Shown here: positions 4,462 through 25,950 of the stretch, in pieces
Numbering within the stretch: the stretch's first letter is position 1
Layout of the letters: each line of letters opens with the position of its first letter
Assembly: GCA_963575745.1 (NCBI GenBank)
Contig: CAUYUJ010000261.1
Coordinates: 1-64,000, forward strand
Source of the DNA: Prorocentrum cordatum
Taxonomy: Eukaryota
Direction of reading: 5' to 3'
Length of the DNA stretch: 64,000 bases
Translations under genes and position numbers: made by a program
Notes under the pieces: generated by a model
Told to the model about the DNA's origin: nothing
Database searches by the model: none
The model's input: the letters and a program-made list of their open reading frames with translations, nothing else

Positions 4462-5270
4462 GAACTCTCGCTCTTGAATAATAATTATTGTTGATCCCCC
4501 CCCCACTGGTGCACATTGATTTTTTCAATTGAAGTGCCCCCCCCGGGGCTCGCATTTGGTTTTTTGTCAAGGAAAGTTTTCCTGCTCAAGCTGGCCCCCT
4601 GGCCCCCGGGTTACAACAAAAACGGCTCCCGCTTGAGACTCCCTCACAATGTAGCCAAGACCCCCGCTCCCGCCCGAGACTTCCTCGCATTTTATTCAAG
4701 AATCGCGCTCTCGCTTTGGGATTTCCTTACAATGTATTCAGGAATCGCTCCTCCTGCGCTCTGGAGTCGCGCTTTCGCTGGAGACTTGTTTGCAATTTAC
4801 TGAAGAATAGCGCCATTGCATTGGAACCTCTTGCAATTTACTCCAGCGCCGCGCTCCCGACACCCAGGCACCCAGGAGTCGCGCTCACGCTTAGGACTCC
4901 TTCGCAGATTACCTAGGAATCGGGATCTCGCTGCCTTTCGTGGCCCCGTTGCAGCCCTTCGTGGCCCCTCGTTGTGTTTCGTGGCCCCGTTGCAGCCTTT
5001 CGTGGCCCCCTCGCTTTGTCTCGTGGCCCAGTCGCAGCCCGTCGTGGCCTCCTCGTTGCCCTTCGTGGCCCCGTTGCAGCCCTTCGTGGCCCCCTCGCTT
5101 TGTTTCGTCGTCCCTTTGCAGCCCTTCGTGGCCCCTTCGCTGCCCTTCGTGGCCCCGTTGCAGCCCTTCGTGGCCCCGTTGCAGCCCTTCGTGGCCCCCT
5201 CGCTGTCCTTCGCGGCCCCGTTGCAGCCATTCGTGGGCCCCTCGCTTTGTTTCGTGGCCCCATATACTAG
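1..5270. repeat. Modular dispersed/tandem repeat family A, with (TTG)n tracts and a GTGGCCCC minisatellite
   Basis: Blocks such as cttgcggattcgtaggaaacccaacacttttt (~1, ~1916, ~2686), ccacgaagtgaagtgtcc (~256, ~2136, ~4243) and aagaataattattgttgg recur. The same blocks recur at 25455-28350. The stretch ~3190-4100 is unique. Confidence 0.85.
3184..3624 (+). CDS. Possible coding fragment of unknown function
   Basis: Stop-free, non-repetitive, protein-like stretch (IHAEIVSGLSYRALATLDVF...WWWLPVWRSYGQ...DDDASRL*). No family recognised. Confidence 0.3.
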   Translation: MHAEIVSGLSYRALATLDVFIAYHAAFMGTDPQKMALWNVSPEVGTEITYPRQDQWWWLPVWRSYGQSDELPNMLDYQALPPQVHNVLAVALPYASTGLPASRRIGNLIGHLGPHGYQPGPHVYQPGSRAPTRPLRAIADDDASRL

Positions 5271-5519
5271 CCGGCCGCTCTGCGGTTGATCGGGAGTTTC
5301 TGTATATAGAAGAAGGTGCGTGCGCTTGTTGGCGAGGGTGAGGATGAGGCTCCTCCTCCTCCTCCTCCTCCTCCTCCTCCTCCTCCTCCTCCTCCTCCTC
5401 CATCCTTCTCTTGCCTCCGTCTGTCCTCCTCCACCACGCAGCTCCATCATCTTCTCCTCCTCCTCCTCCTCCTCCTCCTCCTCCTCCTCCTCCTCCTCCT
5501 CCTCCTCCTCCTCATTCCT

Positions 5520-6862
5520 CCTCTGGGCACCTCCCCCGGGGCGCGGATCCACCGGATCTGTCCGGATCTGTCCGGAAACGGTGCCGGAGGCCGATCTGGG
5601 CTCCTCTGGGCACCTCCCCCGGGGCCGGTTTTGTGAGGATGTCTCAAGCGAGGGCGCCGGTTTGGGATTCGTCGGCGGATCCACTGGATCCAGCGGATCT
5701 GTCCGGAAACAATGCCGGAGGCCGCTCTGGGCTCCTCTGGGCACCTCCCCCGGGGCCGGTTTTGTGAGGATGTCTCAAGCGAGGGCGCCGGTTTGGGATT
5801 CGTCGGCGGATCTGTCCCGAAACGGTGCCGGAGGCCGCTCGGGGCTCCTCTGGGCACCTCCCCTGGGGCCGGTTTTGTGAGGATGTCTCAAGCGAGGGCG
5901 CCGGTTTGGGATTCGTCGGCGGATCAACGGCCGCGGAACAGCCGGATCTGTCCGGAAAACGGTGCCGGAGCTGCAAATCTGGATCTGGTCTCTGGCACCG
6001 CCCCCGGGGGTCCGGTTTTGTGAGGATGTCTCAAGCGAGGGCGCCGGTTTGGGATTCGTCACCGGATCCAGCGGATCCACCGGATCTGTCCGGAAACGGT
6101 GCTGGAGGCCGCTCTGGGCTCCTCCTCTGGGCACCTCCCCCGGAGCCGGTTTTGTGAGGATGTCTCAAGCGAGAGGGCGCCGGTTTGGGATTTCGGCCGC
6201 TCTGGGCTCCATATGGGCACCTCCCCCGGGGCCGGTTTTGTGAGGATGTCTCAAGCGAGGGCGACGGTTTGGGATTCGTCACCGGATCCAGCGGATCCAG
6301 CGGATCCAGCGGATCTGTCCGGAAACGGTGCCGGAGGCCGCTCTGGGCTCCTCTGGGCACCTCCCCCGGGGCCGGTTTTGTGAGGATGTCTAAGCGAGGG
6401 CGCCGGTTTGGGATTCGTCACCGGATCCAGCGGATCCAGCGGATCTGTCCGGAAACGGTGCCGGAGGCCGCTCTGGGCTCCTCTGGGCACCTCCCCCGGG
6501 GCCGGTTTTGTGAGGATGTCTCAAGCGAGGGCGCCGGTTTGGGATTCGTCACCGGATCCAGCGGATCCACCGGATCTGTCCGGAAACGGTGCGGGAGGCC
6601 GCTCTGGGCTCCTCTGGGCACCTCCCCCGGGGCCGGTTTTGTGAGGATGTCTCAAGCGAGGGCGCCGGTTCGGGATTCGTCGGCGGATCCAGCGGATCTG
6701 TCCGGAAACGGTGCCGGAGGCCGCTCTGGGCTCCTCTGGGCACCTCCCCCGGGGCCGGTTTTGTGAGGATGTCTCAAGCGAGGGCGCCGGTTTGGGATTC
6801 GTCGGCGGATCCACCGGATCTGTCCGGAAACGGTGCCGGAGGCCGCTCTGGGCTCCTCTGGC
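5520..6862. repeat. ~122-bp tandem satellite, segment 1
   Basis: Unit ctctgggcacctcccccggggccggttttgtgaggatgtctcaagcgagggcgccggtttgggattcgtc...ggatctgtccggaaacggtgccggaggccgctctgggctc, with a variable number of 9-bp ggatccagc/ggatccacc sub-repeats. Confidence 0.97.
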
Positions 6863-7789
6863 TGGATAGGGTCACGGGCATGTCGGGGATCAGATTAAGA
6901 ATGATGAAAATGGTTTTCTCATGGTTCTAGGCCGCTTGCGGGCCGCGCGGTGCTGAAGTTGAAAATGCTTCATGGTGGTTTCGAAAATGGCCGCGCGCGC
7001 GTTTAAAATAGTTTCGGTGTCAAACTAGCAGCTTGGCGCGCCCGCCATTGGAAGGTATGATTACGCGCAACGCGGCCTTCGCTCAGGGGTGCCAGGGCAA
7101 GTGGCGCTTGATCCTCCTTCCCACTCTGCCCTGCAGTAGGCGGTACGAGCCAAGGGCGTTTGAGCCTTCTTCGCGCCTCTTCACATGCAGCCCGAGCTCG
7201 GCCTTTAAGCGCGCGGGTGTCTTTTGTTGGGCTAGTTGGAACTAGAGGTTGCGTCTCGAACCGAAAGAGCCAACATGTTTTGTCCCACCAATTACCGTTG
7301 CTACTGCACGCTGCTGGGGCCGCCGCCCACGAAGGCATCCCCAGGTTCGCGCCGAGTCCGTCACATGTGAAACGTGCTGCGTTTGCAGGCTGGCCCGCGC
7401 CGAGTCCGTGGCATGTGAAGGGTTTGACAACTCGGCGCCGCGCCGAGCAAGCTATCGTGCCCCCCCTACCCTCCTCATCGGCAGAAGCAGGGGCGCGTGC
7501 AACAGGGCACTTGTTTAAGTTGTTGTATGTTTCAAGTTTGTGCCTAGCAGCTCCGCGAAACTACTGCAGCGCGCGCCTGTGCAGTCCATCGTTGTGTGTG
7601 TTGGGTAATTCGTTATTTTCCCTCCCCGCTCTGAGGTCGCCGCCCTGGGCGGCCGAATGACGAGAAACTTTGCTCAAACTTGCGCCGCAGGATGTGGAGT
7701 GAGAAGATATGGTACGATGCGGGATCGATTACACATGTCTGCGGTAACTGCATATGCAAAGGGGACGATTTGGGGAGACTCGTGGCCCG

Positions 7790-8661
7790 TCAAAGGAGGA
7801 GGACCATGAGCAGGAGCAACTGCAACAGGCGTGCGTCTAGGCGCGCGTGGCCCTGGCACTGCGTCAAAGAAAAACCGTGGTGACTATAATGATTATGGAC
7901 GACCGGGGGGGGCAGCTGCTTTGGCATTGGCGGTGCGCGCCGCAGGCATCTGGATATCTGGACAAACCGCGGGTGCAGCTGCAGGAAGTTTTTCCTGCCC
8001 TCACACTTCCGCTCGTTCGCCAGCGAGACCTCCGTGCTTGTTTTGCGTGCTCGGTCGCACCCGTGTTTCATGTTGCCCACAGCCACCTGGCACTCCATCT
8101 GAGAAATGGCCCCGGCCATGTGTCTCTGGAAAACTGTGCATGGGTCCTTGTTGGTGAACAGCCCCGGGATCGAGGCGTGCACCAACTCCAAACCTCGCTT
8201 TTCGCACTCCGCGATCGCCTCTTCCTGCACCATCAAGCGGCGGGCCAGCCGCTTCTCCGTCGGGCACCACGATCCGCTTGATGCCGCGCTTCTCGCACCT
8301 GTCCACGAAGGCGGCCACGCCCGGCCTGGGCAGGAACGGCGTTGAACCTGGGGAAGCAAAAAAAAACTCCACGACAAATTCGGCGTGCGATTTTGCAGTT
8401 ATTCGCCGCGGGGGCGGTGGAAACATGAAGGCGGTGGGGGGGCGCTTGCTGTAGCAATTGCGTAGTGTAGCTTCTGGCACGCCAACAAATCCAGGGTTTC
8501 GTGCCGATGGGCGATGTTACCTTCGGAAGAGGACGCGACGCGCCACATTCCTCATCCAATGCCCCTGCGGTGTGTGGGGGCGTTGTGGCCCCGCCGTCCT
8601 GGGGCGTTCTTCAAGACGAGCGTTTCCTGGACGGTGGGGGGGTGCCGCGTCCCGCGCCCAT
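7790..8661 (-). pseudogene. Serine recombinase (resolvase-like), left-arm copy, degraded
   Basis: GSTPFLPRPGVAAFVDRCEKRGIKRIVVPD, then a frameshift, then KRLARRLMVQEEAIAECEKRGLELVHAS...DPCTVFQRHMAGAISQME...KCEGRK. This matches the resolvase catalytic-domain layout (SG..RPG, VV...RLAR, helix E, GRK). ATG at 8661 follows an SL-like relic; there is an in-frame stop near the N-terminus. Confidence 0.75.
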
Positions 8662-8695
8662 GATAGCGTGTCCAGAAAAAGCTGCCCCCGCGCTG

Positions 8696-8729
8696 CTTGA
8701 GCCCCGAAAAAGCAACGAATGGCTACAGT
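8696..8729 (-). other. Relict spliced-leader-like sequence
   Basis: Minus strand ACTGTAGCCATTCGTTGCTTTTTCGGGGCTCAAG resembles a split or tandem DinoSL, ~35 nt upstream of ATG 8661. Confidence 0.7.
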
Positions 8730-9523
8730 TGGGTGGTCCACGCTTACTTCCTCCGGTTGCCACGGGCCTCCCAGGGATCCCCGCCGGCCCCCGCTGTCAG
8801 TCCGCCGCAGTCTATTTGTGACTTCTGTCGGGCGACACGAACCTCCCCTGGGCCGTCGCCCGTAGGCTGCACGTACTTCCGCGGCCTCCTGCGGGCCGTC
8901 GGCCGGAAGCTGCACGTACTTCCGCCGGCTGCCGCCGACCTCCCGCCAACGTCTGTTGGCAAGAGCGTCCGCCTCTCCGCCAGCTCTGGCGGGCCCTCAG
9001 CCAGTGGGCCCCGCCTACTCCCGCCGACTGCCGCCGACCTGCCGCTTGCTCCTGCCAGCGCAAGAGCCCCCCCTTCGAACGGCCCCCACGGACCGTCGGC
9101 CAACTTCTGGCGCCGGCCGCCGGGCTGTGCCAGAAGTCGGTCCAGGACTGACTTCTGGCGCGGGCCCGCGTCGGAAGTCGGTCCAGGACCGACTTCCGGC
9201 GCGCCCTTCTGTCTCCGCCCCAACCCTCGTCGGCGCCGTCGCCGGCGTTGCCCCTGCCGCCCTCTAACGTTTTCAAGCCTCGGCGGGGGCCGCGCCCCCC
9301 CTCGCGCGTCCTCCTTCCTCCTCACTGCCCCCTCCCCCAGTTTTCCTATTCGCCCCCCTCCTCGCCCCATTCCCCCCTTCCCCCGCGTCCCCATCCACCG
9401 CCTAATTGTATTCCTCCTGCTCCTGCTCCTACTCCTGCTCCTCCTTCCCTCTCCTATCTGCCGCGCCTGCGGCGTTCGGGCACCGCGCAACATATGTTTG
9501 TTTCGTTTTCTGGCGCCCGCGCC

Positions 9524-10488
9524 ATGCCTGCCAAGATGAAGGCGGCTGCCACGACACGCGCGTCGACGATGACGAACGTGGATGGCGCCAGCGTGCCGCG
9601 GCAGAAGGCACAGATAACGAAGGCGGCCAGGGGCACCCCCCCACCGCCCAGGAAACGCTCGTCTTGAAGAACGCCCCAGGACGGCGGGGCCACAACGCCC
9701 CCACACACCGCAAGGGCATTGGATGAGGAATGCGGCGCGTCGCGTCCTCTTCCGAAGGTAACATCGCCCATCGGCGCGAAACCCTGGATTTGTTAGCGTG
9801 CCAGACGCTACGCTACGCAATTGCTACAGCAAGCGCCCCCCCCCCGCCTTCATGTTTCCACCGCTCCCCGCGGCGAAGTACTGCAAAATCGTACGCCGAA
9901 TTTGTCGTAGATTTTTTTTTTGCTTCCCCAGGTTCAACGCCGTTCCTGTCCAGGCCGGGCGTGGCCGCCTTCCTGGACAGGTGCGAGAAGCGCGGCATCA
10001 AGCGGATCGTGGTGCCCGACGAGAAGCGGTTGGCCCGCCGCTTGATGGCGCAGGAAGAGGCGATCGCGGAGTGCGAAAAGCGAGGTTTGGAGTTGGTGCA
10101 CGCCTCGATCCCAGGGATGTTCACCAACAAGGACCCATACACAGTTTTCCAGAGACACATGGCCGGGGCCATTTCTCAGATGGAGTGCCAGGTGGCTGTG
10201 GGCAACATGAAACACGGGCGCGACCGAGCACGCAAAACAAGCAGGGAGGTCTCGCTGGCGAACGAGCGGAAGTGCGAGGGCAGGAAGAATTTCCTGCAGC
10301 TGCAACCGCGGTTTGTCCAGATATCCAGATGCCTGCGGCGCGCACCGCCAATGCCAAAGCAGCTGCCCCCCCCGGTCGTCCATAATCATTATAGTCACCA
10401 CGGTTTTTCTTTGACGCGGTGCCAGGGCCACGCGCGCCTAGACGCACGCCTGTTGCAGTTGCTCCTGCTCATGGTCCTCCTCCTTTGA
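9524..10488 (+). pseudogene. Serine recombinase (resolvase-like), right-arm copy
   Basis: ORF 9730-10488 has PGSTPFLSRPGVAAFLDRCEKRGIKRIVVPDEKRLARRLMAQEE...FQRHMAGAISQME...HGRDRARK...KCEGRKNF. A basic N-terminus MPAKMKAA... starts at 9524. The expected Y-x-R-x-S catalytic motif is at best degenerate (SS*RTP, ~9659-9676). A possible intron ends at ttttgcttccccag (9931). Confidence 0.78.
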
Positions 10489-11420
10489 CGGGCCACGAGT
10501 CTCCCCAAATCGTCCCCTTGTTGCATATGCAGTTACCGCAGACATGTGTAATCGATCCCGCATCGTACCATATCTTCTCACTCCACATCCTGCGGCGCAA
10601 GTTTGAGCAAAGTTTCTCGTCATTCGGCCGCCCGGGGCGGCGACCGCAGAGCGAGGTGGGAAAATAACGAATTACCCAACACACACACAACATCGATGGA
10701 CTGCACAGGCGCGTGCTGCAGTACTTTCGCGGAGCTGCTAGGCACAAACTTGAAAAACTACAACAACTTAAACAAGTGCCCTTTTGCACGCGCCCCTGCT
10801 TCTGCCGATGAGGGGGGTGGGGGCGCGATAGCTTGCTCGGCGCGGCGCCGAGTTGTCAGACCCTTCACATGCCGCGGACTCGGCGCGGGCCAGCCTGCAA
10901 ACGCAGCACGTTTCACATGTGACGGACTCGGCGCGAACCTGGGGATGCCTTCGTGGGCGGCGGCCCCAGCAGCGTGCAGTAGCAACGGTGATTGGTGGGA
11001 CAAAACATGTTGGCTCTTTCGGTTCGAGACGCAACCTCTAGTTCCAACTAGCCCAACAAAAGACACCCGCGCGCTTAAGGGCCGAGCTCGGGTTGCATGT
11101 GAAGAGGCACGGAGAAGGCTCAAACGCCCTTGGCTCGTACCGCCTACTGCAGGGCAGAGTGGGAAGGAGGATCAAGCGCCACTTGCCCTGGCACCCCTGA
11201 GCGAAGGCAGCGTTGCGCGTAATCATACCTTCCAATGGCGGGCGCGCCAAGCTGCTAGTTTGACGCCGAAACTATTTGAAACCCGCGCGCGGCCATTTTC
11301 AAAACCACCATGAACCATTTTCAACTTCAGCACCGCACGGCCCGCAAGCGGCCTAGAACCATGAGAAAACCATTTTCATCATTCTTAATATGATCCCCGA
11401 CATGCCCGTGACCCTATCCA

Positions 11421-11917
11421 CCTCTGGCACCGCCCCCGGGGCCGGTTTTGTGAGGATGTCTCAAGCGAGGGCGCCGGTTTGGGATTCGTCGGCGGATCCA
11501 CCGGATCCACCGGATCTGTCCGGAAACGGTGCCGGAGGCCGCTCTGGGCTCCTCTGGGCAGCTCCCCCGGGGCTGGTTTTGTGAGGATGTCTCAAGCGAG
11601 GGCGCCGGTTTGGGATTCGTCGGCGGATCCACCGGATCTGTCCGGAAACGGTGCCGGAGGCCGCTCTGGGCTCCTCTGGGCACCTCCCCCGGAGCTGGTT
11701 TTGTGAGGATGTCTCAAGCGAGGGCGCCGGTTTGGGATTCGTCACCGGATCCACCGGATCCACCGGATCTGTCCGGAAACGGTGCCGGAGGCCGCTCTGG
11801 GCTCCTCTGCATGGGCACCTCCCCCGGGGCCGGTTTTGTGAGGATGTCTCAAGCGAGGGCGCCGGTTTGGGATTCGTTCCGGCGATCCCACCGGATTGTT
11901 CCCGGAACGGTGCCCGA
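11421..11917. repeat. ~122-bp tandem satellite, segment 2
   Basis: Same unit, lying between the two large insertions. Confidence 0.95.
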
Positions 11918-12885
11918 CCTTGAGCATCCAATACACCAATATATTGCAAACACCAATATATTAGGATTATCTTAAAATCTCCTCCGTTAAGATTTTCTGT
12001 CAAAATTCGCACCCAAGAAAATCCCCCTAGATGAGGGGCGTTGCCTTCTTTGGGCTTTTTTTTCATACTCAGCGCAAGAGACGAACAACAGGCTGCCCCA
12101 TAAACTTCGTCATGCATGCCCTTGAAAACTCAGACGTGTTCGGAGCACCCCCTCTGCGCTTCCCAAACGCCGCAACGGACCCTCCAAAGTCTTCATCTCG
12201 GTAGTTCCAGTGCTTGGACGGTTGTCCTCCAGAAGAACATAATTCCAAAAAATGATGCAGCTTGGGTTTAATGCGAAATATGTTATCATGCGCCGTCGCC
12301 AAAGCAGTGAAGTGTTGAGCAAAACGCACAGAATGCTCCAGCATCGTGTCTTTCGTAAATGGGAAAGACCCTGCAAGCGCAGCGTAGCAGCGTGATAAAC
12401 TCTGCATGCAAAAATACATAGAAGACTCCACGGGGTCATTCCTGTCGCAGAACTGTTCCGCAAGTTCCATACCCCACGGTATTAGATGCCGAACCATGCC
12501 AGCGCTACATCTGAGCTTGGGATAGCTGTTTGATTTGCCTTTCACAACCCCAATGCTCAAGTGAGGAAGCCTGTTCGGCGCGCCGTTCGGAGGTTGTCTA
12601 TCGTAAAACCCCTGCATCAAAAGGTGCATCTCTCGCATGCGCTGCTTCTGCGTGCCGCCTGGGACTTTCCTCTTGACGACGCAATACCAGATCAGAGAGC
12701 CCATAAAATCTGCAGCTACACCTAAATCCGCGCAGCGCAGCCAATCCAACATCAAAAGTTCGCATGCTGACAAACGGAACCATCAACAAAGGGCATACTC
12801 GATGTCCAGAACCCAGGATTTTCATCAAAAGTTCTTGCCATGATCTGCGGTCCGTGCGCCAGGGCGCGTCGTGGCCGATCTCGGT

Positions 12886-13619
12886 AGAGACCGTGCGGGC
12901 ATCGAAAACTTCGCTTTACCATCCTCCCTCTCCTGTTCTGCCTCTGCCTCCTCCGCCTGCTCCTCGGCTTGCCCACCCTCCTCGACGCCCCCGTCACTTG
13001 GGGCCCCGCCCTCCCCTCCTCCCCAGCGCATCGCTCCTCCCCCTCCAATATGATTTCCCGTTGCGTGCCTCCTCGTCGTCGTCGTCGTCCTCCTCCTCCC
13101 CTCACCTCCTCCTCTTCCTCCTGCTGCTCCTCCTCACTTGCCCTCCTCTCCTCACTCTCCTCCTCCTCCTCCTCCTCCTCCTCCGTCTCCTCCTCGCATC
13201 CCTCCTCTCTCTCCTCTCCTCCTCCTCCTCCTCCTCCACTCCTCCTCCTCCTCCTCCTCCTCCTCCTCCTCCTCCTCCTCCTCCTCCTTCTTCTCCTATC
13301 CGTCTCGTGTTATTGATTTGCTTATGCGCGTTGCCATCCCTTTCCTCCATTCCCCTCTCCCCCTCCCCTTGCCTCCTCCAGCTAATGGTCCGCGCCCCAC
13401 CTCTCAACTCGCCCTGCTGGCCCCGCGCGCAGCGTTGATGGCCCTCCCCCGCTTCTTGGGCGAGCGCCCCCTAGCGACAGGGGATGGCCTTTGCAACGTC
13501 AGCGCGGGGGGCGCGCAACTTTCGCGCCGGGGCCCCCCTCCTCAGGCAGCGCAGGGGGGGCGGGGCGTTGGGGCAGGGGTCGGTGGAGGCAGAACTGGGT
13601 TGGCTATGTGCTTTTCCTT
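12886..13619. other. Microsatellite-rich insert or intron inside the transposase
   Basis: Flanked by a GT direct repeat. Removal restores LPEV-TEIGHD. Alternatively a minus-strand GT-AG intron at 13624-12880 gives LPE-IGHD in frame. Confidence 0.65.
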
Positions 13620-18806: not shown

Positions 18807-21276
18807 CTAGTTCCCCTTGCGGCCGCCCTTCTTGCCGTCCTTCTTGCCCCCGCCCTTCTTCGCCTGGGCGTCCTCGTCTTTCTTCCGCTTCTCCTCCTCG
18901 TCTTTCTTCCGCTGGTCCTCCTCGCGTTTCTTCCGTTCCTCCTCCGCCTTCCGATCGGAATCCTCTCTCTGCTTCCTCTCGGCTTCTGCCCTCGCGTCGT
19001 CCTCTTCCTTCTTATTCCTCTCTTCCGCTGCTGTGCGGGCCTGCTCTGCTTGCGCCAGTCTCCGCTCCTCTGCAGCCTTCCTGTCGTTCTCCTCTTTCTG
19101 CAGCCTCTCTGCGTCAGCCCTCTCCTGCTCCGCAGCAGCCGTGGCCATAGAAGCCGCCGTCGCCACCTCCAGCGGACTCGCAGTGCTTGCGCAACTGCCC
19201 CCGCCTCCCCCGCGCCTGGCGTCAGCTCTCTTTTTCTTGCGTTCTCGCTCGTGGCGCCTGTCCTCTCCCTGCTTGCGCTTCCGACTTTCTTCGGTTGCGC
19301 TCCTGGATTCCTCCTCTTGCAGCCTCATCGCCGCAGCCTCCTCTTCTTCCTGTTGCCTCTGTTTTTCACGCTCCTCCGCCTCTTTTCGATCCTGCTCGAT
19401 TCGTTGGAAAGCTTCGGCTGATCTGCTAGCGACGCTCACCTCTGCTTGCTCCAAGACGCGCAGGACTTGCCTCGTCATCTCTGCTCTCCTCCTCCTCTCG
19501 TCGGCCTTCGCTTGAATCTCCCTTTCTTCCGCCTGCCTGGCTGCTTCCTTCCTCTCTTCCTCTTGTCGCCGAAGAGCTGCTTCCTCGCGTCGTCGGGCTG
19601 CTTCCTCGTCCCTCCGCGCCTGCTCCTGCAGAGCCCTCCTGTCCATCTCCTCGCGTGAAGCCGTTCTCTCGCGCCTCCTCCTCCTCAGCCTCTTCGGGAT
19701 TTCGCGCCCTCTCTTGTTGAGATCCTCCGTCTCAGCGCCGCTAGCGTCGTCTGCGTCCGCCTCTGGGCTGAGCGGGGCCCCCTCGGAGGTCTCGGTCTGC
19801 ATTCCTGCCTCCTGCGTCGCAGGCTGCGTCGCTGGATGCGCGCCTGCAGCTCATGCTTCCGCGCCTCCTCCACCTGCTTCCGCGCCTCCTCCTGCTCCCT
19901 CGGCCAAGCCCTGGGGATTGCGGACAATATGCCCCTAGCTGAGGGGTCATTAATACAAGTAGGGATGTTTGCACCCCTAGCAAAGGGGAATCTTATCGTA
20001 GGGCTGTTTTGGCGTCCCCTAGCGCAAGGGTGCTTTATTTCCTGATCCCCATCGCGTCCTCGGTGGCGTTCGCGAGAGCTTGCTCGTTCCTGTCCATCCT
20101 CTGCTGCTGCCACCTGGGAGGGGGAAAGGGGGGGGGGGAGCAGGAGGAGGAGACGGTGGAGGAGGAGGAGGGGGGGGGGGAGGATGGAGGAGGAGGAAGA
20201 GAAAGGAGGGGAAAGGAGGAGGCAGGAGGGAGGAGGCGGAGGAGGAGGAGAAAAGAAAACGGATGTGAAGAGGGAGAAGGGGGGAGGGAGGGAGGGAGGG
20301 GGGGAGGAGGAGGAGGAGGAGGATGAGGAGGAGGAGGAGGAAGAGAAGGGGGAGGAGGAAGAGGAGGAGAAGGAAGGAGAGGAGGAGGAAGAAGGGAAGG
20401 AGGAGGAGAAAGAGGAGGAGGAGGAGGAGGAGGAGGAGGAGGAGGAAGAACCCTGCAAGAACAGGAACTCGGATTGAAAAACTGCGAAAAGTTTTTCATA
20501 CCAAACTCTGGTGACAAGAAAGGTTTATCATGTCAAACTTAGGTTTCCAGTGGGCGCGCAGCGCAATGGGTTCCCATGGGGGCCACCTGGCGCGCTCGGC
20601 CTCCGACTTGCGGCCGCGATAGCGGCGACCTCCTGTGGAGACGAAGCCCCGCTCCGTACACCAGCGAGAGGCGTGGTGCTCCTGGCAGGAACGCGACACG
20701 CACGTGAAGACCCACGTGCGCCTGCTGCACTTATTGCACAGCTGGATCTTGTCCGTGCGCAAGAACGGCCTTGTTGGGGCCCTCGTGTACCGCTTCTCCC
20801 TGATATCCCTCAGCATCTCAGCCTCATCCTCCTCCTCCTCGTCTGAGACGGCGGTCGCGTCGTCCTATAGGGGAGGAAAGGGGGGGAGACGAAACAAATT
20901 CTTTATTGAAGAGGCGTCCCCTAGCAAGGGGTAAGCTTTTGCATCCGACCCAGCGTCCTTCGCGTCATCGAGATGACGCTTCCGCGGAGGATCGCCCCAC
21001 TGGTCGCCGCCGCTGCCTCCCGGAGCAGATCCGCTGCCAGCGATCATCGCCTGAGGGATGGGGGGGGGGAGGGTTGGCGCGCGCCCTCGCTCTTCTCTGG
21101 CTCTACCCAAGGAGTTCCTGGAGGGAGAAGGCTTCTCTTAGAAAACTTTGGTTTCTGAATTCCCTGATCCCCATCTCGCCCCTGACATCCGAACCTCCTG
21201 ATTTGTTTCCAAGACTCGCGGCCTCCGCCCCCTGCGAAGCGAGCCATGCGGCGAGCGCCGCGAGCGCAAGAGCCAT
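18807..21276 (-). CDS. Transposon accessory gene 3: multi-exon, Cys-containing segment plus long charged coiled coil
   Basis: AG|G acceptors at ~21050, ~20864 and ~20113. One exon has LCNKC...CVSRSC. The terminal region 19802-18807 is E/R/K/A-rich and ends KKGGGKKDGKKGGRKGN*. Exact exon structure and start (21276 or 21247) are uncertain. Confidence 0.55.
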
Positions 21277-23136: not shown

Positions 23137-23367
23137 AAAAAATGGTAAACGAAAAGGAAGTGCCCCTAAATTTGAAGGGGTCCCAGGAAGCTCTTCCCCT
23201 AGCAAGGGGTGACGTCGCGCAACCATGAGGGATCATGTCGAACACAACATAGGAAAGCGTACTTAATATATTGGCGCCCGCCGCGAGCGAATATATTCGA
23301 ACATGGGTTCTCGCTAAGAGCAAATATTTTGGTGTTTGCAATATATTGGTGTATTGGATACTCAAGG

Positions 23368-25430
23368 GAGGCCGCTCTGGGCTCCTCTGGGCACCGCCCC
23401 CGGGGCCGGTTTTGTGAGGATGTCTCAAGCGAGGGCGCCGGTTTGGGATTCGTCGGCGGATCCAGCGGATCTGTCCGGAAACGGTGCCGGAGGCCGCTCT
23501 GGGCTCCTCTGGGCACCTCCCCCGGGGCCGGTTTTGTGAGGATGTCTCAAGCGAGGGCGCCGGTTTGGGATTCGTCACCGGATCCAGGATCCACCGGATC
23601 TGTCCGGAAACGGTGCCGGAGGCCGCTCTGGGCTCCTCTGGGCACCTCCCCCGGGGCCGGTTTTGTGAGGATGTCTCAAGCGAGGGCGCCGGTTTGGGAT
23701 TCGTCACCGGATCCAGCGGATCCACCGGATCCACCGGATGTCCGGAAACGGTGCCGGAGGCCGCTCTGGGCTCCTCTGGGCACCTCCCCCGGGGCCGGTT
23801 TTGTGAGGATGTCTCAAGCGAGGGCGCCGGTTTGGGATTCGTCACCGGATCCACCGGATCTGTCCGGAAACGGTGCCAGAGGCCGCTCTGGGCTCCTCTG
23901 GGCACCTCCCCCGGGGCCGGTTTTGTGAGGATGTCTCAAGCGAGGGCGCCGGTTTGGGATTCGTCACCGGATCCAGCGGATCTGTCCGGAAACGGTGCCG
24001 AGACCGCTCTGGGCTCCTCTGGGCACCTCCCCCGGGGCCGGTTTTGTGAGGATGTCTCAAGCGAGGGCGCCGGTTTGGGATTCGTCACCGGATCCAGCGG
24101 ATCCGTCCGGAAACGGTGCCGGAGGCCGCTCTGGGCTCCTCTGGGCACCTCCCCCGGGGCCGGTTTTGCGAGGATTTCTCAAGCGAGGGCGCCGGTTTGG
24201 GATTCGTCACCGGATCCAGCGGATCCGTCCGGAAACGGTGCCGGAGGCCGCTCTGGGCTCCTCTGGGCACCTCCCCCGGGGCCGGTTTTGCGAGGATGTC
24301 TCAAGCGAGGGCGCCGGTTTGGGATTCGTCACCGGATCCAGCGGATCCGTCCGGAAACGTTGCCGGAGGCCGCTCTGGCTTGGGCACCTCCCCCGGGGGC
24401 CTTTGCGAGGATGTCTCAAGCGAATGCCGCCGTTTGGGGTTTCGTCCCCGATCCAGCGGATCCGTCCGGAAACGGTGCCGGAGGCCGCTCTGGGCTCCTT
24501 GGCAACCTCCCCCGGGGCCTATGTTGCGGGATGTCTCACGCGACCACGCGAGGGGCGCCGGTTTGGGATTCGTCACCGGATCCACCGGATCCAGCGGATC
24601 CGTCCGGAAACGGTGCCGGAGGCCGCTCTGGCTGGGCTCCTCTGGGCACCTCCCCCGGGGCCGGTTTTGTGAGGATGTCTCCAGGTCGAGGGCGCCAGGT
24701 TTGGGATTCGTCATCCGGATCCAGCGGATCCCGTCTCACGCAGAAAATGGTACCGGAGGCCGATCTGGGCTCCTCTGGCACCTCCCCCGGGCCGGTTTCG
24801 CGATTGATGTCTCAAGCGAGGGCGTCGGTTTGGGATTCCCCCCCCCGCCCGACCCGGGCGATCCGCCGAAATCGGTGGCCGGAGTCCGCTCTGGGCTCCT
24901 CTGGGCACCTCCCCCGGGGCCGGTTTTGCGAGGATGTCGCAAGCGAGGGCGCTGGTTTGGGATTCGTCGGCGGATCCACCAGATCCAGCGGATCTGTCTG
25001 GAAACGGTGCCGGAGGCTGATCTGGGCTCCTTTGGGTACCTCCCCCGGGGCCGGTTTTGTGAGGATGTCTCAAGCGAGGGCGCCGGTTTGGGATTCGTCG
25101 GCGGATCCACCGGATCCAGCGGATCTGTCCGGAAACGGTGCCGGAGGCCGCTCTGGGCTCCTCTGGGCACCTCCCACCGGGGCCGTTTTGCGAGATGTCT
25201 CAGGGCGCCGGTTTTTGGGATTCGTCACCGGATCCAGCGGATCCGTCCGAAACTGTGTCCGGAGGCCGCTCTGGGCTCCTCTGGGCACTCCTCCTCGGGC
25301 GGTTTTAGCGAGGATGTCTCAAGCCAGCGCGCCGGGGGATTCGTCACCGGATTCCAGCGGATCCGTCCAAGGAAACGTAGCCGAGGCCGCTCTGGAACCT
25401 TGTTGCTCTTCCGCGCGCGGGGTGAGGATG
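23368..25430. repeat. ~122-bp tandem satellite, segment 3
   Basis: Same unit; increasingly divergent or noisy after ~24360. Confidence 0.95.
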
Positions 25431-25454: not shown

Positions 25455-25950
25455 CAAAATATGTATGCCCTTCGTGGCCCCCGCTCGTTCGCGCCCGTGG
25501 TGGCCCCATATGCATGCCCTTCGTGGCCCCGCTGTCGCCCTTCGTGGCGCCCTCGCTGCCCTTCGTGTCCCCGTTGCTGCCCTCAGTGGCCCCGTCCGTA
25601 CCCTCCGCGGCCCAACATACGTATGCCCTTCGTGGCCCCCGCTCGTTCGCGCCCGTTGTGGCCCCATGCGCATGCCCTTCGTGGCCCCGCTGTCGCCGTT
25701 TGTGGCCCCCTCATTGTCCTACGTGGCCCAGGTGCTACCCTCAGTGGCCCCATCGTTGCCTTCTGTGGCCCCGCATTATCTGCACTTCGTGGCCCACGCT
25801 CGTTCGCGCTCTTCGTGGCCCCATACGTATTCCCTTCGTGTCCCCGCTATCGCCCTTCGTGGCATACTTCGTGTCCTTCGTGGCTCTGCTGTCGTTCTCT
25901 CTCGCTCTCGCTTTCGCTCGTCGTCGTCGTCGTCGCCGTCGCCGTCGTTG

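Follow-up and report, generated by a model that had tools for sequence, protein, structure and literature searches.

The serine-recombinase elements previously described in eukaryotic nuclear genomes and in giant viruses are IS607-like (PMC3627910, PMC3673617). IS607 is the one serine-transposase family described in eukaryotes and makes neither terminal inverted repeats (TIRs) nor target-site duplications (TSDs) (PMC6188088, PMC3627910); its TnpA carries a MerR-type helix-turn-helix (HTH) N-terminal to the catalytic domain (PMC3673617), and the elements often carry a TnpB/Fanzor gene (PMC3627910). Plasmid-derived serC genes have also been described in diatom plastids. Here, we report a palindromic mobile element of about 4.6 kb at positions 6863-11420 of a 64-kb window (positions 1 to 64,000 of contig CAUYUJ010000261.1, deposited under Prorocentrum cordatum; the window denotes this whole stretch), in which the sole recognisable gene is that of a small resolvase/invertase-type serine recombinase (PF00239). 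The element was probably inserted long ago, as a non-autonomous member of a multi-copy family of DNA transposons with long, fold-back-like TIRs, which was moved in trans and in which the recombinase gene is a decaying remnant. By its closest labelled relatives, the host looks like a marine green alga similar to Pyramimonas, with the element in its nuclear genome.

Fold-back and other long-TIR DNA transposons, such as Drosophila FB, Galileo of the P superfamily and hAT-like elements with 8-bp TSDs, are typically non-autonomous. The two arms of the present element, each about 1.8 kb long and about 96% identical, occupy 6863-8655 (strict end 8646) and 9623-11420 (strict start 9632). Seven collinear inverted-repeat blocks, 93-98% complementary, extend over these same intervals, and in a global arm alignment the matches per 100 alignment columns stayed at 90-100 until about 8654/9628 and then fell to 49 and 31, with 78 substitution sites between the arms. 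Both analyses bear out the inverted arms of about 1.8 kb that a first-pass annotation, made from the letters of the sequence, had proposed. Its spacer of 985 bp matches the strict inner boundary (8646/9632), which leaves unique sequence at 8647-9631, and the lenient boundary (8655/9623) gives 967 bp. The spacer as a whole was also considered as a degenerate palindrome, which self-blastn on the minus strand rejected except for 9100-9203.

The termini are precise. Across the 64 kb there are exactly two occurrences of the terminal 16-mer, one per end (6863-6878 and 11405-11420) and on opposite strands, and two or more matches to it were found in none of 100 shuffles. Subterminal copies of the motif TGAAAATGS are located at 6905-6913 and 6960-6968 on the left, with a variant at 6982-6990, and at 11293-11301, 11315-11323 and 11370-11378 on the right. 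Of the eight matches to this motif in the window, five fall within 130 bp of an element end; the expected number of matches was 1.2, and a total of eight was reached in none of 100 shuffles. Further copies or fragments of the element were not found elsewhere in the window.

The element interrupts a GC-rich satellite with units of 122-131 nt, whose array extends over 5543-6861 on the left, as delimited by Tandem Repeats Finder and repeat families, and continues at 11421-11914 on the right; another array is located at 23367-25395. The empty site can be rebuilt from the satellite consensus. Direct reading and comparison with the satellite confirmed the proposed 8-bp TSD, with exact copies of CCTCTGGC at 6855-6862 and 11421-11428. 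Relative to the satellite consensus CCTCTGGGC, both copies lack the same G, and this shared deletion fits a true 8-bp duplication.

Evidence for mobility came from the Logan contigs of four public runs, which were compared with 8450-11450 and thus with one arm only. Such contigs collapse repeats and lose rare variants, so that their depth is not copy number, and some runs may include the window's own organism or sample, so that contigs bridging a junction possibly represent the same locus. A 1755-nt contig (data set X3, record 32) matches 9777-11420 and then continues into 112 nt of unrelated flank starting exactly after 11420, where this second copy reads GCCGGCAC. The same terminus beside a different flank indicates that the element is mobile. 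Several contigs per position were present in three data sets, with a maximum of 10 at one place in X2. Moreover, 29 of the 33 listed variant letters of the other data sets equal the left-arm base at the homologous place, indicating that the 57 arm differences within 9777-11420 are split roughly evenly as private changes. The arms were thus identical or nearly so at insertion and have since drifted by about 1.7-2% each from the family consensus.

The same observations bear on a reading in which nothing moved, namely an inverted segmental duplication, confined to this locus, of a recombinase gene either of the host or horizontally acquired. A single copy in the window would suit such an event, and so would a left gene copy that is a truncated mirror image, as from fold-back repair. 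It is nevertheless very improbable, given the exact 8-bp TSD within the satellite, the terminus found beside another flank in X3, the many contigs per position in three data sets (up to 10, in X2) and the protein fragments of 84-97% identity found elsewhere.

Palindromes are a known long-read artefact and the protein family is mainly prokaryotic, both of which would be expected if the structure had been a fold-back error of long reads or assembly, or bacterial contamination. Short-read contigs, however, bridge both junctions, that of the left arm and the spacer in X1 record 1 (8605-9188) and that of the spacer and the right arm in X2 record 20 (9423-9673). Together with the 78 substitution sites between the arms and the TSD, these bridges uphold the earlier view that the palindrome is not a chimeric-read artefact. 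The element is furthermore embedded in satellite and microsatellite DNA, where none of the 64 large window open reading frames (ORFs; stop to stop, about 200 aa or more) reached a Pfam cut-off and two gave sub-threshold matches; the 64-kb window appears to be almost wholly repeats and non-coding DNA. In addition, the VPDEKRLA motif of the recombinase clade described below was absent from the recombinases of 185,579 prokaryote species genomes (five pattern matches, none confirmed). An artefact or contamination is therefore scarcely credible.

The gene inside the element carries a resolvase-type domain, as first proposed. The right ORF (9730-10488, plus strand) matched PF00239 with 46.5 bits against a cut-off of 23.3 (E 5.3e-12, profile positions 45-142 of 145), and the left ORF (7790-8377, minus strand) scored 22.7 bits, just under the cut-off of 23.3. 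The two copies are divergent and read outward from the centre, the left one along the minus strand and the right one along the plus strand, in agreement with the earlier description of divergent resolvase-like genes. The claim that both arms carry the recombinase gene stands in part. Homology is present in both arms, but the catalytic exon is single and lies within the spacer, so that the left copy, which lacks it, is a 5'-truncated mirror image and not a second gene.

The structure of the right copy was traced with P0001, the best full-length relative. In tblastn, residues 36-70 of P0001 match 9524-9631 on the plus strand with 64% identity, an exon-1-like segment (MPAKMKAAATTRAST) that holds the start codon and the catalytic Arg-x-Ser and in which the motif TTRAST aligns with ITRTST of P0001 and MRTSS of the bacterial P0003 in the RTSS alignment. 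Residues 75-87 match 9643-9681, an exon-2-like segment (TAQETLVLKNAPG) in a different frame, and residues 86-217 match 9928-10323. The main exon or ORF (PGSTPF...KCEGRKNFLQL...) runs from 9928 to its stop at 10488, as delimited by Pfam, tblastn and a hidden Markov model (HMM), with no recognisable HTH after about 10330. Between the first two segments, the frame breaks at a run of seven C (9636-9642), where 11 nt stand against 12 in relatives. The run has identical length in the left arm and in the gapless short-read contig X2 record 20, so that the frameshift is real and not a long-read error.

A second defect is a 246-nt interruption at 9682-9927, where the proteins of relatives continue and which is bounded by a 7-nt direct repeat, CCCCAGG. 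Its 3' end, T10GCTTCCCCAG|G, resembles a splice acceptor. On the 5' side only GA preserves the reading frame, so that GA..AG takes the place of the spliceosomal GT/GC..AG boundaries, and the segment contains one in-frame TGA. A spliced joint across it was found in none of the four short-read runs, none of which is on record as RNA, and X10, a run guessed to be RNA, covers only 10067-10343 and 10819-11289. The suggestion of an intron-containing gene is thus unproven. Its companion, a spliced-leader-headed gene, gained no support either, since the dinoflagellate spliced leader (21-mer and 16-mer, up to three mismatches) gave no match and the closest labelled relatives come from the green alga Pyramimonas.

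The left serine-recombinase pseudogene extends over 7790-8635 on the minus strand, with tblastn homology to P0001 and P0002 at 8597-8635, 8259-8351 and 7955-8263; it shares the 246-nt interruption, and one extra base near 8262-8266 shifts its frame. An HMM built from the C-termini of relatives matched only CEGRK..FV in the element, the next match having E 1.2 or worse. The window copy has neither an uninterrupted frame nor a C-terminal HTH. No other domain exceeded the Pfam cut-off in the arm and spacer ORFs, and the absence of any TnpB/Fanzor or DDE ORF, noted at first pass, was confirmed for the ORFs of the element. The recombinase copy in the window is a dead, decayed remnant and does not move the element. 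A run of eight C in the recombinase tail (10366-10373) varies in length among copies, with CC added in X1, X2 and X3 contigs; such a length change alters the C-terminal frame and accounts for the deviating end of the Pyramimonas peptide P0018.

Strand exchange by serine recombinases involves no DNA synthesis. It could be argued that the recombinase is itself the transposase or integrase, that a circle was moved by site-specific recombination and that the 8-bp repeat is a shared core rather than a TSD. The recombinase is indeed the only recognisable gene in the element, and the ends, if joined, would flank the 8-bp core as a perfect inverted repeat, resembling a recombinase site. The second copy, however, differs right after 11420 (GCCGGCAC), so that there is no constant core; the short-read contig over the C7 run carries the same frameshift, and the IS607 family is described as having neither TIRs nor TSDs (PMC6188088, PMC3627910). 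We regard this alternative as decidedly improbable.

The favoured reading, a long-TIR transposon moved in trans, can be given a tentative course of events. One end of a parent element would have been converted to a two-ended unit. On this end, the gene of a small serine recombinase of the resolvase/invertase type would have pointed towards the terminus, presumably as an accessory gene of the parent, and an inverted duplication from the terminus to about 9632 of the gene would have left one full 5' end and one 5'-truncated mirror copy. The mirror copy ends 4 nt before the C7 run. Such a fold-back duplication would have created a mobilisable palindrome, which could then have landed in the 122-bp satellite by a cut-and-paste type reaction with 8-bp staggered target cuts. 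Since the element encodes no transposase and its only gene is broken, the transposase was presumably supplied in trans, and a DDE-type partner may be envisaged. The exact 8-bp TSD, the flank of the second locus, the precise inverted termini and the subterminal TGAAAATGS repeats point to a transposase that makes staggered cuts. TIRs and a TSD, as in cut-and-paste elements of the TIR class, are both present, the TSD length being that of one locus. With these features, a second insertion site and a broken gene, the mobilisation in trans proposed at first pass appears likely.

Several points weigh against this reading. No transposase of any kind was found, and a DDE-type enzyme acting in trans is deduced from the TSD and the TIRs and nothing else. 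The second insertion site is a single case with its right flank only, and the 8-bp TSD length derives from one locus. Collapsed Logan contigs settle neither the copy number nor the palindromic form of all copies, and the contigs that span the junctions may derive from this very locus in the same organism. The main exon differs between the arms by eight non-synonymous and five synonymous changes, a ratio of 0.49 that is below 1; 13 changes are too few to settle constraint, and on these sequences the ratio cannot be told from neutral drift. Near-identical copies are transcribed in the Pyramimonas transcriptome, indicating that some copies at least are expressed. The class of the presumed transposase is likewise loosely constrained, as an 8-bp TSD is compatible with hAT-like elements and with several other superfamilies and is not unique to hAT. 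The 8-bp TSD CCTCTGGC on both sides would fit hAT, but the element ends start TGGATAGGG, and position 1 does not fit the hAT end motif. In searches for related termini, the terminal 20-mer had no match in metagenome contigs. The terminal 16-mer had seven chance matches in viral contigs (25-32 of 60 identical over the first 60 nt), where blastn with the element found nothing.

In Tn3-type elements, res sites lie upstream of the resolvase gene. Two related 29-nt palindromes, 41 bp apart, are located in the spacer at 9130-9158 and 9171-9199, with the palindrome CGCGGGCCCGCG between them, as identified by motif search and DNA fold. Both are near the centre of the element, 325-394 bp upstream of the recombinase ATG; all four window matches to the palindrome motif fall within 9130-9199 (0.73 expected), and the DNA fold gave z = -7.8. 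By analogy, the twin palindromes may tentatively be listed as candidate res-like sites, an assignment that we hold as doubtful. Short-read contigs of three runs break within 9130-9199. Rfam returned nothing beyond a far sub-threshold miRNA-hairpin match on the palindromes.

These palindromes invite comparison with the Tn3 design. The parent might have been a eukaryotic Tn3-type counterpart, with a transposase for strand transfer and a serine recombinase acting at a res-like site, where it would serve to resolve cointegrates or dimers, or else to flip the spacer; the copy in the window would then be a transposase-less derivative that retains res and a decayed resolvase. The palindromes stand upstream of the ATG and nowhere else in the window, with their fold z of -7.8. 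The recombinase has the resolvase/invertase layout, in which the catalytic domain is N-terminal and, in relatives, an HTH follows at the C-terminus, and the TIRs and TSD imply a separate transposase. Nevertheless, searches of the element yielded no transposase, and its TSD measures 8 bp against 5 bp for the Tn3 family. The palindromes are odd-centred, whereas serine recombinases use 2-bp crossover sites; as candidate sites by sequence only, they may also be plain hairpins. A Tn3-type parent is thus unlikely.

The recombinase belongs to a group of proteins that extends well beyond the window. An exhaustive profile-free search returned 665 related proteins at E 1e-3 or better. The closest labelled relatives, P0018 (92% identity) and P0019 (84%), are EukProt peptides from the transcriptome of Pyramimonas sp. 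CCMP1952, and P0169, 97% identical, comes from a 934-nt contig. P0001 has 288 aa, lies on a 952-nt contig and covers the whole PF00239 domain (positions 2-143). Family members measure 229-288 aa, and intact relatives are found on transcript-sized contigs; P0020 and P0170 are encoded on contigs of 4075 and 2402 bp. Common to the best dozen hits are the signatures RTSS..G.S..RQK, GVSGT.PF..RPG, VPDEKRLARRL and KxEGRK, and the C-terminal tails of P0001, P0021 and P0022 align with the bacterial HTH and are helical in the model. P0050 departs from the family alignment after ...LDHDVKV and continues into a low-complexity tail, YIYIYRERERERD; this tail looks like read-through into an unspliced intron, which hints that the relatives reside in intron-bearing genomes.

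A quick IQ-TREE analysis was made of 122 rows, namely the window, 11 signature proteins and, taken in order of id, the first 110 among 182 other hits of 170-300 aa, with ten short or redundant rows excluded. The window and 14 others formed a clade of 15, with a Shimodaira-Hasegawa-like approximate likelihood-ratio test (SH-aLRT) value of 100 and a stem of length 0.92, apart from the other 107 rows, which are mostly unlabelled. P0047, P0050 and P0072, which had not been labelled beforehand, fell into this clade and carry the same signatures. On sequence comparison, the clade can be taken as a real, distinct family of serine recombinases. A eukaryote label is attached only to P0018 and P0019, short peptides outside the tree, and the other clade members are, the window aside, unlabelled; a eukaryote-specific clade is a supported inference. 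With the family alignment, loci of relatives were found neither in prokaryote genomes nor in viral contigs, and metagenome contigs gave one locus (L008) at 33% identity. A protein search with P0001 alone returned only P0001 itself and P0002, phage records gave no match, and plasmid records gave four matches at 31% identity or less.

Structural comparison is consistent with this assignment. A single-sequence search of the PDB returned nothing at E 0.01, and the profile search returned only the Gin invertase (E 7e-4). An AlphaFold model of the family (mean predicted local distance difference test, pLDDT, 74.6) matched TP901-1 (E 1.3e-6, TMt 0.69) and Sin (TMt 0.71), so that the family is predicted to have the serine-recombinase catalytic fold. 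The ESM Atlas described P0001 as a 'small serine recombinase' and nothing more.

Several repeats and one frame around the element deserve mention. The spacer contains a CTC/CCT microsatellite (9359-9459) whose summed k-mer depths range from about 1,000 to 145,000 in the four public runs, indicating an extreme abundance of this simple repeat in the short-read data sets, and similar CTC/CCT/GGA arrays occur at 5350-5523, 13068-13297 and 20137-20446. Tandem repeats at 4927-5245 and 25455-25863 (periods 21/84 and 158) have a common CCCTTCGTGGCCCC core and adjoin both satellite arrays, which suggests that they are part of a larger duplicated repeat block. About 650 bp to the right of the element, just beyond the satellite, an open frame of 237 aa (12072-12782, minus strand) is without a Pfam match; in the ESM Atlas it fell to unnamed clusters (0.96-0.98) and to clusters of Plavaka, a CACTA/KDZ-like transposase (0.87), and it is possibly a remnant of a different DNA transposon. 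No tRNAs were found in the window.

In the full-text literature searched, which did not extend to subscription journals, Repbase reports and supplements, no description was found of a nuclear eukaryotic TIR transposon that carries a resolvase-type serine recombinase, and within this literature the accounts of serine recombinases from eukaryotic nuclear genomes concern transposases of the IS607 type. In the present case, a resolvase/invertase-type enzyme of a distinct clade lies within a eukaryotic transposon that has TIRs and a TSD. Should the clade prove truly eukaryotic and active, it would represent a second route of serine recombinases into eukaryotic mobile DNA and could offer small recombinases already adapted to the eukaryotic nucleus. 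The window copy is dead, and its value is that of a pointer to the recombinase clade and to the parent element. More speculatively, and with low confidence, the locus might be the relic of an undescribed kind of eukaryotic element, whose founders pair a transposase with a eukaryote-specific, non-IS607 resolvase acting on the twin palindromes, as an analogue of the Tn3 design, and whose intact, transcribed relatives are still active in marine protists.

Among the known systems, the small resolvase/invertase group (Tn3/gamma-delta resolvase, Sin, Gin/Hin) shares with the present family the N-terminal PF00239 domain and its Arg-x-Ser. Relatives in the clade have about 230-290 aa and, as in that group, a C-terminal helical DNA-binding tail after KCEGRK, and the predicted fold of the clade matches the catalytic domains of Sin, Gin and TP901-1. 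In contrast to the small resolvases, the clade is very divergent, the Asp of the bacterial DRxxR is aligned with Lys (EKRLAR), its host seems to be a eukaryote, and the copy in the window is broken and without HTH. The nearest proteins outside the clade, at about 31-36% identity, are a bacterial group of about 225 aa annotated as 'recombinase family protein / Pin-like invertase' (Methylobacterium and Bradyrhizobium plasmids). This group shares RTSS, KCEGRK and the HTH layout with the window's clade but is split from it by a long branch (SH-aLRT 100, length 0.92) and lacks VPDEKRLA. A large serine recombinase, as in phage integrases and TnpX/TndX with PF07508, a zinc ribbon and more than 400 aa, was rejected because PF07508 is absent and members have 229-288 aa.

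As a mobile element, the locus resembles the fold-back transposons in arms that are long relative to the element, in subterminal short repeats and in a TSD of 7-8 bp, but its arms carry a recombinase gene and not arrays of short repeats. With the Tn3 family it shares TIRs and a TSD together with a resolvase-type recombinase and upstream palindromic sites, here as candidates. It differs in that the element holds no transposase, the host appears eukaryotic, and the TSD measures 8 against 5 bp and the TIRs 1.8 kb against about 38 bp. Among the window ORFs, as in P0001, P0021, P0022 and P0170, PF00239 alone exceeded its Pfam cut-off. An IS607-type element was accordingly rejected, as a MerR-type HTH and TnpB/Fanzor were not found in the element and both TIRs and a TSD are present: the window family places its catalytic domain first, and the element that carries it ends in TIRs of 1.8 kb flanked by an 8-bp TSD.

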